Shown: piece by piece, positions 17,699 through 23,962 of the stretch
How the letters are laid out: each line of letters starts with the position of its first letter
How positions within the stretch are numbered: position 1 is the first letter of the stretch
Assembly (NCBI GenBank): GCA_963833225.1
Contig: CAWHXD010000019.1
Span: 256,001-320,000, forward strand
Direction of reading: 5' to 3'
Origin: an uncultured Chloroflexia bacterium
GTDB lineage: Bacteria; Chloroflexota; Limnocylindria; Limnocylindrales; CSP1-4
DNA: 64,000 nt
Notes under the pieces: model-generated
What the model was told of the DNA's origin: nothing
The model's input: only the letters and a program-made list of their open reading frames with translations
The model's database searches: none
Made by a program: the position numbers and the translations under genes

Positions 17699-18000
17699 GA
17701 CGGCGGGCGCTCTGCTGCGGTGAAGGCGGCCACAGGGTACCAGCGGTCCGGCCGATGGCGGTCTCGTGGACCCGGCTTGGTCCGGCCGGTACTTCTGGGG
17801 CGTGGTTCCGGCCGGCACCGTTCGGGTACAAGTCGGATCAGCCAGCCGACGTCGGACCGGCCGCGTCCGGGCGATCGGAACTTGCCGTCGGGCTCCAAGG
17901 AGTCGCTTTGACCGAGCCGGGCCGGGGGTCGACCCAGTTCCGTGCGCGCGCACCCGCCGAGGGCCGCCTCGCCACGGGCGCGCTCGGGGCGCCCCTGCGC

Positions 18001-20583
18001 ATGATCATCCGCATGCCGGCCTGGCTGAGGCTGTGGTCCTTCAACGGGCTCCTGGCCGGTCTCGCCGCTCTCCTGTTCTTCGGGTTCCTGGTGGGCCAGG
18101 ATGCCTTCGGCTCGCCCGTGCACGTCCCCTGGTATGTCATGGCGGTGGCGTTCTTTGCCGCGGAGCTCAAGGTCGTCGACGTCCACTTCCGGCGCGAGAA
18201 GCACTCGTTCACGCTGAGCGAGGTTCCCGCGGTCGTCGGGTTCTTCGTCCTGACCCCCTCGGAGTACCTCCTCGCGATGCTGGTCGGGACCAGCTTCGCG
18301 CTCCTCCTCGACCGGCAGTCGCCGCCCAAGTTCGTCTTCAACCTCTCGGCGTACGCGGCGAGCGCGACGGTCGGGCTCACGGTGTTCCGCATCGTGGCAA
18401 CCCCGGGCGGTGCTCCCGATCCGTTCGACTGGGTCGCCGCGTTCGCGGCCACGTCGGCGGCCACGATCGTCATCTCCGGCTCCATCGCGACGGCCATCAC
18501 CGTGTCGGACGGTGCGCCGCAGTTCCAGAAGCTTCCGGAGATGATCCAGTTCGGGCTCCTGGTGGCCATCGCCAACACCAGCCTCGCCCTGCTGGCGGCC
18601 GCCTTCCTGTGGAGCGACCCGCGGCTGCTGTCGCTCCTGGTCGTGCCGCTGGTGGTCGTCTTCCTCGCCTACCGCGCATACGCCTCCGAGCGCGAGAAGC
18701 ACGAGCGGCTGGAGCTCCTCTACCAGTCCAGCCGGATCCTCCAGCACTCGCCCGAGCTGGACTCGGCCCTCGCCGCCCTCCTGGAGAACGCCCGCGAGAT
18801 GTTCCGGGCCGAGCGGGCCGAGATCGTGCTGTGGCCCCGTGATGGCGGCGAGGAGGGCCTGCTGACGGTGGCCCGCCATGACGCGCCACCGGAGGTGATG
18901 CAGCCGGTGATCATGTCCGCGATCGATCCCCTCCACCGGCGCATCGGCCTCGAGCGCCGGGCCTTCCTCCACGTCTCGGCGACCAGGGACCTCGATCCGA
19001 TCCGGCATGCGATGGCGGTCCCGCTGTTCGGCGAGTCGGGCCTGATCGGGTCGATCGTGATCGCCAACCGGCTCACCGAGGCCACGACCTTTGGCATCGC
19101 CGACCTCCGGCTGCTCGAGACGCTGGCCAACCAGTCCGCGGTCGCCCTCGAGAACGGCCAGCTGGAGCAGTCGCTCAGCGAGCTGTCGCGACTCAAAGAG
19201 GAGCTTCGATACCAGGCGTACCACGACTCGCTCACGGGTCTTGCCAACCGGAGCCTGTTCGTCGGCCGGGTTGACCAGGCCCTCACGGGGGCACGCCCCG
19301 GCGAGATGCCGGCGGTGCTGTTCCTCGACCTCGACAACTTCAAGGATGTGAATGACACCCTCGGCCACGCCGCCGGCGACCAGCTCCTCGTGGCCGTGGC
19401 CGAGCGAGTGCGGTCCTGCGTCCGGGCGAGCGACGTTCCGGCGCGGCTCGGCGGCGACGAATTCGCCGTCCTCGTGGATGACGCTCCGGGCCTCGCGCGC
19501 AGCCAGGCGGTGGCCAGGCGCCTGATCGAGTCGCTGGCGACCACCTTCCCCGTCGAGGGCCACGACCTGAAGATCTCGGCCAGCATCGGCATCGCCGCCG
19601 GCCAGGGCGCAGCGCAGGGGCCGGACGACCTGCTCCGCAACGCCGACGTGGCGATGTACACCGCCAAGCAGGCCGGCAAGAACCGGTTCGCGGTGTTCGA
19701 GCCCACCATGCATGCCGCGATCGTGGCCCGTCATGCGCTGTCGAGCGAGCTCTCGCGCGGAATCTCGGACGGCGAGATCGTCGTCTACTTCCAGCCCGTG
19801 ATCACCCTTGCGACGGGCACCACCTACGGCGCCGAGGCCCTCGCGCGCTGGCGGCATCCGGTCCGGGGCATCGTGGAGCCGGACGACTTCATCCCGCTCG
19901 CGGAGGAGAGTGGCGCGATCATCCCGCTCGGAAGGGCTGTCCTGTTCGAGGCCTGCCGCCAGGCGGCGGTCTGGCGAGCGGGAACCGGCGGCCCGCTGAT
20001 CCTGAGCGTCAACCTGTCCGCGGCCCAGCTGGGCCGCGAGGACTTCGTCGACGACCTCAAGGACATCCTCCGCGCGACCGGGCTGTCGGCCAACCGCCTG
20101 GTGCTGGAGATGACCGAGACCGTCATGTTCCATGACACGCAGACCACGATCGCTCGCCTCACCGCCCTCCGGGAGCTGGGGGTGCGGGTCGCGATCGACG
20201 ACTTCGGGACGGGCTACTCGTCGCTTGGCTACCTGCGCCGCTTCCCGGTCGACATCCTCAAGATCGCGAAGGAGTTCATCGTCGGGGCAGGCGGTGGTCC
20301 CGATGGGTGGGCATTCGCGCACTCCATCGTCGCGCTTGGCCGGACGCTCGGGCTTCAGATCATCGCCGAGGGGATCGAAGAGGAGGCCCAGCTGGAGCAG
20401 CTGCGTGAGCTGGGCTGCGAGCTTGGGCAGGGGTTCCTGTTCGCTCGCCCGATGCCCGGCGACGATGTCGCCCGGATCTTCGCCGGCGCGCCGTCGTCGG
20501 GTGGGGACCCGGACAAGGCCGCTTGGGTTGCCGGGTGTCCTTCGACGACAACCGCGCTGGACGTCTCGATAGTCGCGAGGTGA
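18001..20583 (+). CDS. Membrane-sensor/GAF/GGDEF/EAL bifunctional c-di-GMP turnover protein
   Basis: Multi-TM N-terminus, GAF-like segment, [10 protein letters not shown], intact RASD I-site and [34 protein letters not shown]. Start 18001 or 18013. Confidence 0.92.
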
Positions 20584-20587
20584 CCGC

Positions 20588-21169
20588 ATGTTCATGATCT
20601 ACTCGGTGCTCATCGGGCTGGTCGCGGGGGCTGCCGTCGGAGGCCGGCTGAGCGGCCTCGCGACGCTCGAGTTCCGGTGGGCACCCGCGATCATCGCCGG
20701 CCTGCTCATCCAGGTCCTGCTGTTCAGCAACCCGATCGCCGAACGGATCGGCGACCTGGGGCCCGCGGTCTACGTCGGCTCGACGCTGCTGGTGCTCGCC
20801 GCCGTCGCCCGCAATGCCGGCATCCGCGGCATGCCGGTGGTGGTGGTCGGGGCCGCGAGCAACGTCGTCGCGATCCTGGCCAACGGGGGGTTCATGCCCG
20901 CGAGCCAGGGGGCACTCGCGGCCCTCGGCAAGTCGGCGCCCGTCATCTATTCGAACAGCTCCGTGGTCGAACAGCCCGCCCTGTGGCCGCTGACGGACAT
21001 CTTCGCGCTGCCGACCTGGGTGCCCGGAGCCAACATCTTCAGCGTCGGCGACGTCCTGATCGGGATCGGGATCGGGGCCACGATCGTCATGGCGATGCGG
21101 GGCGTGGCGGCCGCCCGGACCGGGGCCGACCCTGGTGAATCGCGAATGGCCGGTGCGCCCGGGCACTGA
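20588..21169 (+). CDS. DUF5317-like membrane protein (candidate LspA-like aspartic peptidase)
   Basis: GGRLSGL, ANGGFMP, LTDIF and IFSVGDVLI motifs recognised as typical of DUF5317; 4 bp after the GGDEF-EAL stop. Confidence 0.8.
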   Translation: MFMIYSVLIGLVAGAAVGGRLSGLATLEFRWAPAIIAGLLIQVLLFSNPIAERIGDLGPAVYVGSTLLVLAAVARNAGIRGMPVVVVGAASNVVAILANGGFMPASQGALAALGKSAPVIYSNSSVVEQPALWPLTDIFALPTWVPGANIFSVGDVLIGIGIGATIVMAMRGVAAARTGADPGESRMAGAPGH

Positions 21170-21204
21170 CCCGACCGGATACCGGGGATCACCCATCCGG
21201 GTGG

Positions 21205-21233
21205 TTGGGACGGCCGGCGGGTCGCCCTATGGT
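21205..21233 (+). promoter_or_regulatory. Candidate sigma70-type promoter for the riboswitch/peptide transcript
   Basis: TTGGGA-N17-TATGGT about 30 nt upstream of the riboswitch. Confidence 0.45.
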
Positions 21234-21264
21234 CGGCGCTGAGGCAAGCACCCTCCATCGAGGA

Positions 21265-21343
21265 CTCCGTCCAGGGCAAACCCGTCGCGAGGCGGGGACG
21301 CAAAGCCAGGGATCTTCTTCGGAAGAACGCCCGGTTGCCGGGG
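21265..21343 (+). ncRNA. c-di-GMP-I (GEMM-I) riboswitch
   Basis: GGGCAAACC-cgtc-GCGA-ggcg-GGGACGCAAAGCC...GGTTGCCG matches the GEMM-I consensus; GNRA loop on P2; P1 ctccg/cgggg; G at the G20-equivalent position favours c-di-GMP over c-GAMP. Confidence 0.9.
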
Positions 21344-21379
21344 CCGAGGTGCGGACACCCTGCTACAGGGAGTGACACT

Positions 21380-21469
21380 GTGAAGGCGAACCTGGCGCGC
21401 TTCACCTGGGCCGTTGCGCTGCTGGCATCGATGGCCCTGGCCATCGGCGCAGGGATGCGGTGGTACTAG
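21380..21469 (+). CDS. 29-aa signal-peptide-like small peptide MKANLARFTWAVALLASMALAIGAGMRWY
   Basis: GTG start 7 nt after AGGGAG; directly downstream of the riboswitch; basic N-region, hydrophobic core, GAGxRW tail. Below the ORF-track cutoff. Confidence 0.75.
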   Translation: MKANLARFTWAVALLASMALAIGAGMRWY

Positions 21470-21474
21470 TCGCC

Positions 21475-21570
21475 ATGGAGCCCATGCTCAAGGCGCAAGC
21501 CTTCCGCGTGCCCATGGTCGGAACCCCTCTCATCGCCACTCTCGCTCCGGAGGCGGGACAGCGCTGGTGA
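21475..21570 (+). CDS. Second small peptide MEPMLKAQAFRVPMVGTPLIATLAPEAGQRW (possible divergent paralog)
   Basis: Begins 5 nt after the first peptide; similar length and the same AG-x-RW C-terminus; alternative ATG at 21484. Confidence 0.5.
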   Translation: MEPMLKAQAFRVPMVGTPLIATLAPEAGQRW

Positions 21571-21844
21571 TCACCGGTCGGGCTTCTGCCCGGCCATCGC
21601 GAGAGGCCGTCGGGGAACCGACGGTCTTCGCCGTTAACGAGCGGCCTCGTGCAGCCACTGCCGGGGTCTCGGCAGGCGCCCCCTATCGGACCGTTGCGGC
21701 CCCGTGGTTGCGCCCGTGAGATCGTGCGGGTATTCTTCGCGGACCCGTCACGGGACGGGATCAACGGAGTCGGGTCGCTTGGACTTCTTCCAGGGTCGCA
21801 GCCGCAGCCGCGTTGCCATCGTCGTGACGGCCGATGGTCGCCGC

Positions 21845-21997
21845 GTGAACGTGCCCCTGCGCGACCTCGAATCCCAGGACGTAACCCCCCTCGCGCTTCT
21901 TCGCTCGCTCCTTGCCGGCCTTGAGAGCCTTGTCGGCCTCCTCATTACCGGCTCCCGGCGGGAGAACGGAGGGACGCGGAGGAGCGGTCGCCACTGA
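21845..21997 (+). CDS. Leu-rich leader peptide of the ilv-leu operon attenuator
   Basis: MNVPLRDLESQDVTPLALLRSLLAGLESLVGLLITG...; clustered Leu codons, five of them CTT (rare at this GC content), followed by a terminator hairpin before ilvB. Start uncertain. Confidence 0.6.
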   Translation: MNVPLRDLESQDVTPLALLRSLLAGLESLVGLLITGSRRENGGTRRSGRH

Positions 21998-22022
21998 GGC
22001 CGCTACCACCGAGAACCAACGG

Positions 22023-22050
22023 GACCCTCGCCGGGCGGCGAGGGTCTTTA
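22023..22050 (+). terminator. Attenuator terminator hairpin upstream of ilvB
   Basis: gaccctcgcc-gggc-ggcgagggtc perfect 10-bp stem followed by TTTA. Confidence 0.7.
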
Positions 22051-22096
22051 CATGTCCGGCGGTCGCGGGGCCGCCGGAGAAGGGACCTGAGCGGAC

Positions 22097-23962
22097 ATGA
22101 CGATCACCAAGGGCGAGCCGCCGGCCACCGGGGCGACGGAGGCGCCGCCGCGTCGCAGTCACGTGCCGGGTGACGGGACGGCGGGTGCGGCGGCGGTCGA
22201 GGATGCGCGCCGGGCCATGCTCCACGAGGTCCGGGGTCGCAAGCGGACCCGGATCGGCGCGGACGCCCTTATGGAGGCACTCATCCTCCAGGGGACGGAC
22301 ACCCTGTTCAGCTACCCGGGCGGCGTCATCCTGCCGATCTACGATGTCCTGGTCGACTACCCGCAGATCCGGCACATCCTCGTCCGCCACGAGCAGGGCG
22401 GGGGGCACGCCGCCGATGGCTACGCCCGCGCAAGCGGCAAGGTCGGCGTGTGCATGGGGACGAGCGGTCCCGGGGCCACCAACCTCGTCACGGCGATCGG
22501 CACCGCCCAGCTGGACTCGGTTCCGATCGTGGCGCTCACCGGCAACGTGCCCGGCGCGCTGATCGGGAAGGACGCGTTCCAGGAGATCGACATCACCGGC
22601 ATCACCCTGCCGATGACCAAGCACAACTACCTGGTCCGGAACGCGGACGACATCCCGCGGGTCGTCGCCGAGGCCTTCTACCTCGCCCGGACCGGCCGGC
22701 CGGGCCCCGTCCACATCGACTTCACCAAGGACGCCCTGCAGCAGGAGACGCGCGCCGAGCACCCCTCCCTCGACGAGGTGATCGCCGGTCTGCCGGGCTT
22801 CCGCCCCACCTTCGAGGGTCACCCCAAGCAGCTCAAGACCGCGGCCCGGGAGATCGCCCAGGCCAAGCGGCCGCTGATCCTCGCCGGGCACGGTGTCCTC
22901 ATCGCCGAGGCTTGGGACGAGCTCAAGGCGTTTGCGGAGAAGGCCCAGATCCCCGTCGCCTGGACCCTGCTCGGCATCGGCTGCATCGACGAGGAGCACC
23001 CGCTGGCCTACGGCTACATGGGCATGCACGGCTGGAAGCACGTCAACCGCGCCATCCAGGCGGCCGACCTGCTGATCGCGATCGGGATGCGCTTTGACGA
23101 CCGGGTCACCGGCAGCGTCAAGACCTACGCCCCCTACGCGCGGATCATCCACGCGGACATCGATCCGGCCGAGATCGGCAAGAACGTCGCCGTCGAGGTC
23201 CCCATCGTGGGCGACGCGAAGAACGTCCTCGCAGGCCTCACTCGGCTGGTCCACGCGGTGGAGCCCGAGGAGCGTTCCGAGTACCTGGCCCAGCTCCGGG
23301 CCTGGCGCGAGGAATCCGAGGCCAGCTCCTGGCACGGCTCGGGCGGCTCCGACAGCGGCGTGCTCACGGCGGACTACGTGGTGGGCCGGATCGGGGACCT
23401 CACGGACCATGTCGGCACCTACGTGGCCGACGTCGGCCAGAACCAGATGTGGCTGGCGCGCTATACGCGGTTCCGGCGGCCACACAGCCACATCAGCTCG
23501 GGCGGCCTGGGCACCATGGGCTACGCCGTGCCGGCCGCGATGGGCGCCGCGCTGGGCAATCCCGCGGCCGAGACTTGGGCCGTGTGCGGTGACGGCGGCT
23601 TCCAGATGACGAGCCAGGAGCTGATGACGCTGGCCGCGGACCGCATCCCGGTCAAGATCGCGCTCCTCGACAACAAGAAGCTGGGCATGATCCGCCAGTG
23701 GCAGGAGATCTTCTACGCGGAGAACTACCACTCCTCGCACCTGCCGGGCCCGGACTTTGCCAAGCTGGCCGACGCCTACGGGATCCCCGCCTTCAAGGCA
23801 ACCCGGACCGACGAGGTGGACGATGCCATCAGGGCCGCACAGGCCGTGGACGGTCCGGCGCTCATCTGGTTCGAGATCGAGCAGGAGCAGAACGTGTACC
23901 CGATCATGCCGGCGGGCAAGGGCCTGTCCGACCTGATCGAGCATCGGGGGCCCGAGGAATGA
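22097..23962 (+). CDS. ilvB: Acetolactate synthase large subunit
   Basis: YPGGVILP, RHEQGGGHAADGYARASG, TSGPGATN, GMHG, RFDDRVTG, GDGGFQMT, GMIRQWQ. Confidence 0.96.
   Translation: MTITKGEPPATGATEAPPRRSHVPGDGTAGAAAVEDARRAMLHEVRGRKRTRIGADALMEALILQGTDTLFSYPGGVILPIYDVLVDYPQIRHILVRHEQGGGHAADGYARASGKVGVCMGTSGPGATNLVTAIGTAQLDSVPIVALTGNVPGALIGKDAFQEIDITGITLPMTKHNYLVRNADDIPRVVAEAFYLARTGRPGPVHIDFTKDALQQETRAEHPSLDEVIAGLPGFRPTFEGHPKQLKTAAREIAQAKRPLILAGHGVLIAEAWDELKAFAEKAQIPVAWTLLGIGCIDEEHPLAYGYMGMHGWKHVNRAIQAADLLIAIGMRFDDRVTGSVKTYAPYARIIHADIDPAEIGKNVAVEVPIVGDAKNVLAGLTRLVHAVEPEERSEYLAQLRAWREESEASSWHGSGGSDSGVLTADYVVGRIGDLTDHVGTYVADVGQNQMWLARYTRFRRPHSHISSGGLGTMGYAVPAAMGAALGNPAAETWAVCGDGGFQMTSQELMTLAADRIPVKIALLDNKKLGMIRQWQEIFYAENYHSSHLPGPDFAKLADAYGIPAFKATRTDEVDDAIRAAQAVDGPALIWFEIEQEQNVYPIMPAGKGLSDLIEHRGPEE

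Follow-up and report, generated by a model that had tools for sequence, protein, structure and literature searches.

The locus described here lies in a 64,000-nucleotide (nt) stretch of DNA from an uncultured Chloroflexia bacterium (contig CAWHXD010000019.1, positions 256,001 to 320,000 of the forward strand; the whole stretch is called the window below, and coordinates are counted from its first letter). Here the aptamer of a class I cyclic di-GMP riboswitch (c-di-GMP-I, or GEMM-I) is followed on the plus strand by two very short open reading frames (ORFs), ORF1 and ORF2, and then by hairpins that lie ahead of the acetolactate synthase gene ilvB. A sequence-only reading of this DNA had placed here a GEMM-I riboswitch, a small hairpin ccctg-cta-caggg over the Shine-Dalgarno (SD) sequence AGGGAG, and a GTG-initiated ORF of 29 codons; reading the letters directly, we found each of these elements where it had been placed. 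The anatomy of the unit was drawn, in window coordinates, from an alignment of 11 orthologues of the same genus, and its elements follow one another in the order TAnnnT promoter, 5' stem-loop, aptamer, SD hairpin, ORF1, ORF2, hairpin H1, hairpin H2 and ilvB promoter. The core of the unit comprises the following features (aa, amino acids):

21266..21343, plus strand: c-di-GMP-I (GEMM-I) aptamer; RF03167 62.8 bits, RF01051 61.1 bits
21358..21372, plus strand: SD hairpin CCCUG-CUA-CAGGG (21358-21370, -6.5 kcal/mol) with the SD AGGGAG at 21367-21372
21380..21469, plus strand: ORF1, 29 aa, MKANLARFTWAVALLASMALAIGAGMRWY; GTG start at 21380, stop at 21467-21469, coding-type substitution pattern
21380..21405, plus strand: start-codon hairpin GUGAAGGCG-AACCUGG-CGC(G)CUUCAC, formed by ORF1 nt 1-26 (-10.3 kcal/mol)
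21475..21570, plus strand: ORF2, 31 aa, MEPMLKAQAFRVPMVGTPLIATLAPEAGQRW; ATG 5 nt past the ORF1 stop, without an SD of its own

The only match in the 64 kb window to reach its Rfam gathering score was that of 21266-21343 (plus strand) to RF03167, c-di-GMP-I-GGC (E 1.9e-12), which covers the full model (positions 1-80) at 62.8 bits, 3.8 above the cut-off of 59. With RF01051, whose cut-off is 35, the same place in the window's own assembly scored 61.1 bits, and the GEMM-I call of the sequence-only reading thereby passed the covariance-model search that had been proposed as its check. A permissive Rfam scan of 20900-22200 added matches at chance level only (SAM-IV, sR34, SorY, BjrC68 and HOXA11-AS1_3; E 2-7). 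The GGC label is a weak one because Rfam keeps the best model per clan and the margin over RF01051 was 1.7 bits. Clan competition at such a margin may also lead automated annotation of G+C-rich Chloroflexota genomes to over-call RF03167.

We take 'GGC' to name positions 20, 47 and 92 of the RF03167 variant; the hallmark of the cyclic GMP-AMP (c-GAMP, GEMM-Ib) riboswitch is an A in place of G20. Using the RF03167 model alignment and a numbering map of our own, we placed the equivalents of G20, A47 and C92 of the Vibrio cholerae Vc2 aptamer at G21275, A21302 and C21338. The ligand-contact roles of these three residues are described in PMC5888326. Helix P1b is closed by a GCGA loop; for the junction that follows it the RF03167 consensus has GACGCGAAgCc, the window GACGCAAAGCC. 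Where the consensus has G at the A47 equivalent (GACGCGAA), the window carries the canonical A (GACGCAAA), so the GGC-variant identity was dropped; the c-GAMP type was dropped likewise, as position 21275 is G. Among 97 units the A47 equivalent was A in every one, which sets these aptamers apart from RF03167. What the window's aptamer has in common with that model is a score above its gathering cut-off and G+C-rich helices. The G20 equivalent was G in 90 units and A in one (six were not parsed by the regular expression), and the C92 position showed GC in 84. With Vc2 (RF01051) the aptamer shares both the covariance-model architecture and the three equivalents. Because A and G stand at the A47 and G20 equivalents across units, we assign it to canonical c-di-GMP-I; on its sequence it is almost certainly a real riboswitch, and c-di-GMP is the predicted ligand. 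The GGC variant is not mentioned in the main text of Weinberg 2017 (NAR), and full-text search placed 'c-di-GMP-I-GGC' in three papers, in one of them as a list item only.

ORF1 changes among relatives as a coding sequence does. In codons 11-28 of the 11 orthologues, 10, 4 and 16 of 18 sites vary at the first, second and third codon positions, with a ratio of nonsynonymous to synonymous differences per site (pN/pS) of 0.35; for 82 distinct sequences pN/pS was 0.47 and the summed entropies by codon position were 15.0, 6.8 and 21.9. The family consensus is MKANLARFT-x-A[LVI]xLLA[ST]MAL[ST][LVI]GAG[MIVL][RK]W, followed by 0-7 or more residues. Its closing motif, G-A-G-x-[RK]-W, is written with freely varying third codon positions (GGC/GGT/GGA/GGG; GCG/GCC/GCA/GCT; CGG/AAG/CGC/CGT/AGG/AGA) and is therefore selected as protein. 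Neither ORF1 nor ORF2 matched a family in Pfam or in NCBIfam. The nearest ESM Atlas clusters, to be taken as a lead only, were unnamed 29-30-aa 'hypothetical proteins' with scores of 0.90-0.92.

ORF2 begins where ORF1 ends. In 10 of the 11 orthologues its ATG lies 2-5 nt past the ORF1 stop or overlaps it by one base, and in the remaining one (L035) it starts with an overlapping GTG. For the wider survey, 80 loci were examined and gave 84 units, four of the loci holding tandem pairs about 500 nt apart; ORF2 was present in 74 of the 84, was 9-38 aa long, always had an in-frame start at the ORF1 stop and always ended in [AS]-G-[HQRL]-R-W plus 0-2 residues. Both peptides thus close on AG-x-R-W. 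Long forms of ORF2, for instance MTRTLKAQAFRVVLILSALASSALVLEAGHRWN, align end to end with ORF1, and hhalign related the two with a probability of 94.8% (E 5.1e-8, 27 columns, 41% identity), a comparison in which both partners are short and hydrophobic. On this evidence ORF1 and ORF2 are tandem paralogues, ORF2 being a diverged or degenerate copy. The window's ORF2 keeps LKAQAFRV and EAGQRW, with a core broken by Pro and Gly, and its best 17-residue Kyte-Doolittle mean is 1.15 as compared with 1.93 for ORF1. The Arg codon of R-W in ORF2 (window 21559-21567; L068-L147) is CGC in 73 of the 74 units, its Ala, Gly and His codons varying freely, unlike the corresponding ORF1 position, which is filled by CGG, AAG, CGC or CGT. 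The fixation of CGC points to a possible nucleotide-level constraint on CGCUGG in ORF2.

Were the transcript a riboswitch-controlled non-coding RNA with untranslated ORFs, the strong nucleotide conservation of ORF1 nt 1-26 would be accounted for, but not the codon-periodic substitutions, a motif conserved as protein with free third positions, an ATG kept in frame at the ORF1 stop while ORF2 ranges in length from 9 to 38 codons, or an SD placed 7 nt before the GTG. We find this explanation scarcely credible, and the micro-ORFs are very likely to be the translated products of the riboswitch.

As to what ORF1 makes, the sequence-only reading saw essentially a signal sequence that would leave a product of about 5 residues. 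The peptide does have the form of one: an n-region, MKANLAR, an h-region 13 residues long, and small residues ahead of the final four. Cleaved by a Sec-type route after A-L-[TSA] or G-A-G, it would release a secreted signal of 4-8 residues ending in RW, comparable to Phr- or SHP-type pheromone precursors; A19, T/S/A21 and G23-A24-G25 sit at -3/-1-like positions, and the conserved residues fall exactly in the would-be mature part. In ORF2, however, the motif follows V-[LI]-E (E-A-G-H-R-W is a poor peptidase site) and persists in forms of 9-10 aa that lack any signal sequence. The tail behind the W ranges from 0 to 7 or more residues. Beside the unit stand DUF5317 and ilv or leu genes, and nothing linked to it encodes an exporter, a receptor or an oligopeptide permease. 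Co-translational Sec targeting is unlikely, since a chain of 29 aa is complete while still within the ribosome tunnel. We consider a released signal improbable. The claim of a bare signal sequence is also unsupported because G-A-G-x-[RK]-W is conserved as protein and shared with ORF2, and because ORF2 forms that keep the motif can lack the hydrophobic part altogether. Since the motif recurs in ORF2 after V-L-E, the tail after W varies and the chain ends within the tunnel, ORF1 more likely yields a micro-protein that stays uncleaved, spans the membrane once (N-in) and carries at its C-terminus a functional interfacial motif; its insertion into the membrane would follow from the hydrophobic segment.

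The sequence-only reading was also correct that no larger co-oriented gene follows before the ilv leader: ORF listing and Pfam searches returned none between the aptamer and ilvB (start 22097; acetolactate synthase, a thiamine pyrophosphate (TPP) enzyme by Pfam), and none of four overlapping frames (minus strand, 165 and 120 aa; plus strand, 101 and 72 aa) gave a Pfam match. Two further co-oriented ORFs after ilvB are tentatively read as ilvN and ilvC. The boundaries of the unit are suggested by the following features:

21205..21233, plus strand: putative promoter, -35 TTGGGA (21205-21210), 17-nt spacer, -10 TATGGT (21228-21233), from sequence reading
21241..21255, plus strand: 5'-terminal stem-loop GAGG...CCUC at the predicted transcript start, an RNAalifold helix in the 11 orthologues
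21576..21595, plus strand: hairpin H1, GGUCGGGC-UUCU-GCCCGGCC, 5 nt past the ORF2 stop, from sequence reading
21603..21628, plus strand: hairpin H2, GAGGCCGUCGG-GGAA-CCGACGGUCUU, strong, G+C-rich and conserved
21708..21736, plus strand: ilvB's own promoter, -35 TTGCGC, 17 nt, -10 TATTCT; GGTTGCGC...TAnnCT is conserved in the genus alignment

We infer from these a promoter, a transcript end and a function for the 5' stem-loop. The TAnnnT hexamer occupies a single alignment column in 11 of 11 genus orthologues. A hairpin recurs at the place of H1 in relatives, with differing sequences, and H2 shows compensatory changes in the genus alignment (GCCGUCGG/CCGACGGU versus ACCGCCGG/CCGGCGGU); a strict automatic criterion found H2 in 49 of 74 units, and minimum free energy (MFE) listings show a hairpin of its type in nearly all. 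H2 is the probable end of the transcript, and the ilvB promoter, after which the ilvB leader follows, forms the downstream boundary. A self-contained transcription unit of roughly 400 nt, holding riboswitch, ORF1 and ORF2, is the best explanation of this arrangement, and the small ORFs stand as the regulated products, as had been proposed, since the unit ends in hairpins before the separate conserved promoter of ilvB. In RNA libraries we found contigs from near-identical relatives over 21284-21470, 21362-21581 and 21279-21566 (3, 6 and 9 differences), which hints at expression only weakly, as libraries of this kind may contain DNA. The runs matching the unit had small word shares throughout. 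Many further RNA contigs matched 21273-21315 only, that is, the GEMM-I cores of other organisms, and none in four runs covered 21100-21267 or 21604-21800, which leaves these runs without bearing on the transcript ends.

The frame of the ilvB leader, running from TTG 21779 (window 21708-21997), holds R-V-A-I-V-V-T-A-D-G-R-R-V-N-V, and RRRVA[IV][AV][IV]-like strings occur downstream of the unit in three relatives (L071, L082 and L100). This leader is probably a branched-chain amino-acid attenuator. In four other loci (L101, L113, L124 and L145) the unit is followed not by an ilvB leader but by a frame beginning ...PRTIVEKIWTDHVVTQD, which to us resembles the N-terminus of LeuC. A first regular expression for the ilv-leader pattern matched downstream of 6 of the 84 units, and the downstream context does vary; that two branched-chain amino-acid genes are found as neighbours may or may not be meaningful.

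ORF1 and ORF2 might themselves be leader peptides without a function of their own, AG-x-R-W stalling the ribosome at the stop and so setting H1, H2 and read-through into the branched-chain genes. Of ORF2, indeed, only AG-x-R-W plus 0-1 codon and a stop is retained throughout, the 9-codon forms included; in the window this stop lies 5 nt before H1, the Arg codon is almost fixed as CGC (73 of 74 units), and several lineages have ilvB leader-like or LeuC-like sequences behind the unit. Yet the downstream genes differ from lineage to lineage, some lying on the opposite strand; ilvB has a conserved promoter and leader of its own; H2 is a very strong hairpin; and the hydrophobic core of ORF1 is under purifying selection in at least 82 sequences. 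A pure leader role therefore seems to us rather improbable.

The expression platform lies partly inside ORF1, where the start-codon hairpin stands beside the SD hairpin and buries the GUG start. The stem of the SD hairpin differs by lineage, being CCCUG/CAGGG in the window and L036 and GACUC/GAGUC or GGCUC/GAGUC elsewhere (for example GACUC-AAAG-GAGUC), and the linker between it and the aptamer is variable in the 11 orthologues. A strict test, requiring 5 bp or more without interruption in a hairpin over the SD, was passed by 48 of 97 units, as compared with 10.3% of shuffles. Of the sequence-only reading's SD sequestration, translational control as the most likely mode stands; the SD hairpin itself proves to be half of the platform, the start-codon hairpin having gone unseen. 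The latter is the better-supported of the two elements.

The first ten codons of ORF1 are nearly invariant even at synonymous sites, with a synonymous difference (pS) of 0.05 versus 0.47 downstream and one variable site in 30 nt. A class-level pattern search with the 26-mer of ORF1 nt 1-26, allowing up to 3 mismatches, gave 41 matches, 28 exact and 13 variant. All changes in the variants fell at nt 1, 4, 6, 7, 8, 10, 11, 25 or 26 and none at nt 12-24. The pair 1-26 changes from G-C to A-U (ATG...CAT) in L191 and L193/L194, which turns the Thr9 codon into one for Ile or Met, and to G-U in L200; the hairpin re-pairs in another register in L199, and L192 and L197 each lose one pair. The start-codon hairpin is thus supported by covariation in the sequences compared, and its loop and 3' strand carry an extra constraint. 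One more of the variants, L198 (G406:C34; CTG...CAG), was rejected as a compensatory variant, as it lies inside a sensor-protein gene with no aptamer upstream. Its ...LKANLARFS... stretch matches the 26-mer with 2 nt mismatches by chance or convergence, and matches of this kind could contaminate pattern counts. In L193, L194, L187 and L190 the aptamer and the 26-nt platform are kept and the hydrophobic core and GAGxRW of ORF1 are lost, the frame of L190 continuing into an ORF2-type hydrophobic peptide; in some lineages, it seems, the RNA element outlives the ORF1 peptide.

The 26-mer occurs in 20 of 70 genus genomes (21 copies, 20 exact) and in 35 of 401 genomes sampled from the class, distributed by family as 32/137 (the window's own), 2/153, 0/92, 0/16 and 0/2. 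In a collection of species-representative genomes it is exact in at least 119 stretches, those among the matches listed being labelled mostly as 'Candidatus Limnocylindrales', 'uncultured Chloroflexia' or 'Chloroflexota' metagenome-assembled genomes, while a few bins are labelled otherwise; the element is thus conserved in more than a hundred species-level genomes. The units were collected by selecting on the 26-mer, whose invariance is accordingly subject to ascertainment bias. Upstream, CCAGGGCAAACC precedes the ORF1 start by 104-121 nt in 78 of the 84 units. The unit is beyond chance because aptamer plus ORF recurs at 11 of 66 aptamer loci of the genus and the 26 nt are exact in at least 119 stretches. 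Whole units stand as tandem pairs about 500-590 nt apart in L094, L095, L119 and L130, and also in G186, G304, G331 and G453, and G026 carries one copy on each of two contigs.

The loop and 3' strand of the start-codon hairpin (CCUGGCGCG) can also pair with the aptamer core CGC-AAA-GCCAGG, which contains the A47 equivalent and the 5' strand of P2, so that ORF1 nt 12-20 have an alternative partner in 21299-21310. In partition-function folding of 78 units, nt 12-24 paired locally with a probability of about 0.4 and with the aptamer at 0.3-0.45. The top alternative partners were aptamer positions 40-45 (GCCAGG, the P2 5' strand) for CCUGGC and 34-36 (CGC of GACGC) for GCG. The GCCAGG is specific to aptamers of the ORF1 class, other classes of the genus having GCCACGG. 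Ensembles constrained to either helix differed by -1.1 +/- 3.1 kcal/mol and lay within 3 kcal/mol of each other in 52 of 71 units.

From these parts we propose that c-di-GMP, when bound, would lock the aptamer, letting the start-codon and SD hairpins form and turning translation off; with the ligand absent, the aptamer core would invade the start-codon hairpin and free the start codon. ORF2 would then be translated by termination-reinitiation, coupled to ORF1, and the C-terminal G-A-G-x-R/K-W of ORF1 would have its target in a membrane protein, perhaps the product of the DUF5317 gene, which lies just upstream beside that of a GGDEF-EAL enzyme. Control is probably translational and, given that it is, repression by c-di-GMP is the favoured direction, at somewhat better than even odds. 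To the reading as a whole, translational repression of ORF1 and ORF2 by c-di-GMP with a membrane micro-protein as product, we assign a probability of roughly 45%.

The partner is suggested first by synteny. Two genes of the window precede the unit:

17755..20583, plus strand: GAF-GGDEF-EAL membrane protein, 942 aa (Pfam EAL 3.1e-73, GGDEF 7.8e-46, GAF), a c-di-GMP turnover gene directly 5' of the DUF5317 gene
20588..21169, plus strand: DUF5317 membrane protein, 193 aa (Pfam PF17248, 1.3e-24), co-oriented with the unit and upstream of it

A co-oriented DUF5317 gene lies upstream in 68 of the 84 units, and one in the opposite orientation was seen once; the genes downstream vary among lineages, some being on the other strand. 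Complex prediction for DUF5317 (alignment A2) and ORF1 (alignment A1) gave 0.47 (runs 0.43, 0.47 and 0.53), the best of three controls giving 0.00; the runs agreed in at least 83% of contacts, with a partner predicted local distance difference test (pLDDT) of at least 66. In calibration, on a set with no chain shorter than 30 residues, 116 of 157 solved complexes and 2 of 215 mismatched pairs came up to the mark for the complex score; scores of 0.60 or under accounted for only 18 of the 157 solved complexes and for both passing mismatches. These predictions lend weak support to DUF5317 as a possible partner of ORF1, and we treat it as a lead, the first functional one for this family. Small single-pass membrane proteins that regulate larger membrane proteins include MgrB, MgtS, AcrZ, PmrR and the actinobacterial SafA. 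ORF1 resembles them in size, in its single hydrophobic helix with a small-residue face and in a gene placed beside that of a membrane protein, and differs from them in that its partner rests on synteny and a weak complex prediction. Full-text literature searches returned no paper with 'DUF5317' and none with both 'Limnocylindr' and 'riboswitch'.

Several results weigh against the proposed repression and its parts. We infer the direction of the response rather than read it off, because the start codon gains little in the invaded ensemble (its unpaired probability goes from 0.00 to 0.32) and the SD zone shows no change (0.43 when invaded vs 0.45). Since neither strand of the alternative helix varies, it shows no covariation. 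The long-range helix GUCCAGG/CCUGGGC, which RNAalifold proposed for the genus, was dropped for lack of generality: only a subgroup has W at codon 10, which varies in the family at large. Some units lack an SD hairpin, and a loose test of SD pairing found no enrichment (59 of 97 units versus 51% in shuffles). A promoter and terminator consensus scan of 20900-22300 returned no sigma-70-like site and no U-tract terminator, and the tails 3' of H2-type hairpins average 2.65 U per 8 nt, a weak U tail. The short ORF2 forms of 9-10 aa, with AG-x-R-W and no hydrophobic segment, are unexplained by a membrane anchor, and so keep a nascent-peptide or leader role alive as a rival. Finally, the DUF5317-ORF1 score lies in a range that is 'more often wrong than right unless the guess was likely beforehand'.

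The same parts could also work with the opposite logic, the aptamer-ORF helix of the free state blocking the ribosome-binding region and c-di-GMP turning translation on by leaving only two breathing local hairpins. Two folds of nearly equal energy, a start codon opened to a modest 0.32 in the invaded state and an SD zone equally accessible in both states are all compatible with such a switch. A start-codon hairpin of -10.3 kcal/mol, however, should in general inhibit initiation strongly, and it forms fully only when the aptamer keeps its own strands. Activation by c-di-GMP is in our view unlikely, though a rival to be taken seriously.

That both SD and start codon are sequestered would suit a type-I-toxin-like peptide as well, one that damages membranes, is silenced by the folded ribosome-binding region and is released at low c-di-GMP; ORF1 is small and hydrophobic with charged ends. 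Against this, the synteny beside DUF5317 is stable and vertical in 68 of the 84 units, unlike that of mobile toxin loci, and no antisense RNA or antitoxin feature turned up, although no search was aimed at them. A toxin is very improbable.

Returning to translational repression, its wider form would make the two AG-x-R-W micro-proteins dedicated effectors of c-di-GMP signalling, produced at low c-di-GMP only, that go into the membrane and bind DUF5317, whose gene neighbours that of the GGDEF-EAL enzyme, in a feedback loop, with the switching strand in the first nine codons fixing MKANLARFT across the family; this extension is speculative and we doubt it. What the platform inside the coding sequence does indicate is an RNA constraint that overrides the choice of codon and even of amino acid, as where GTG becomes ATG and the Thr codon becomes one for Ile or Met. 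Unlike Vc2, the riboswitch here has a platform that extends 26 nt into the coding region, invariant across many species, and a micro-peptide as its product.

The closest published case is the CD1980.2 family of Clostridioides difficile, 58-aa membrane-associated proteins encoded behind class I c-di-GMP riboswitches, which according to PMC13724677 (Nat Commun 2026) are repressed by c-di-GMP through premature transcription termination, promote sporulation and have no homologues outside C. difficile. The two systems share a class I riboswitch with only small hydrophobic products downstream, membrane-associated there and predicted to be so here, and paralogous copies, which in C. difficile are several and often unannotated. 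The family is set apart from ORF1 by its description and length: the peptides here have 28-31 aa and the motif G-A-G-x-R/K-W, and come from Chloroflexota instead of Firmicutes. Compared with the terminator control described there, we see no terminator between aptamer and ORF but a pair of start-codon and SD hairpins, and two paralogous ORFs translationally coupled in one unit. ORF1 would accordingly represent a peptide family that is unrelated and smaller still, governed by the same class of riboswitch in an uncultured phylum of the soil, and a new handle on the action of c-di-GMP through micro-proteins.

Of 36 other genomes of the genus, 33 held RF03167 matches; of 24 from a sister genus with small genomes, none did. 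The matches numbered 67 in total. For 66 of the 67, the product downstream of the aptamer was examined and fell into these classes:

18/66 loci: a 31-aa ORF like MATARPRLDALVRVLAVAALALAGIASVRPI, including L001, the second aptamer of the window's genome
11/66 loci: ORF1 of the present unit
27 loci and one degenerate copy: proteins of about 300-800 aa starting MFWDGERW...
6/66 loci: proteins of about 160 aa starting MSFWTGTHW..., MSFWDGQRW... or MRKDFWDG...
3/66 loci: other

A micro-ORF alone thus follows the aptamer at 29 of 66 loci, and because it does, we suggest that micro-proteins are a common and systematically unannotated output of c-di-GMP signalling. The second aptamer of the window's genome (L001:1394-1582, minus strand, the same as G000:C8, about 994006-994087; 69 and 70.9 bits) is followed by AGGAGG, the GTG-initiated hydrophobic ORF of 31 aa, MATARPRLDALVRVLAVAALALAGIASVRPI, and hairpins; its class is a second riboswitch-micropeptide family, unrelated in sequence to ORF1. 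The MFWDGERW... proteins are membrane-anchored (L011, L015, L024, L030-L033, L042, L046-L066 and others). The N-terminal G-x-R/H-W of these and of the ~160-aa proteins resembles the C-terminal G-x-R-W of ORF1 and ORF2, a likeness that may also reflect an RNA platform, since CCCAG...CUGGG flanks the AUG.

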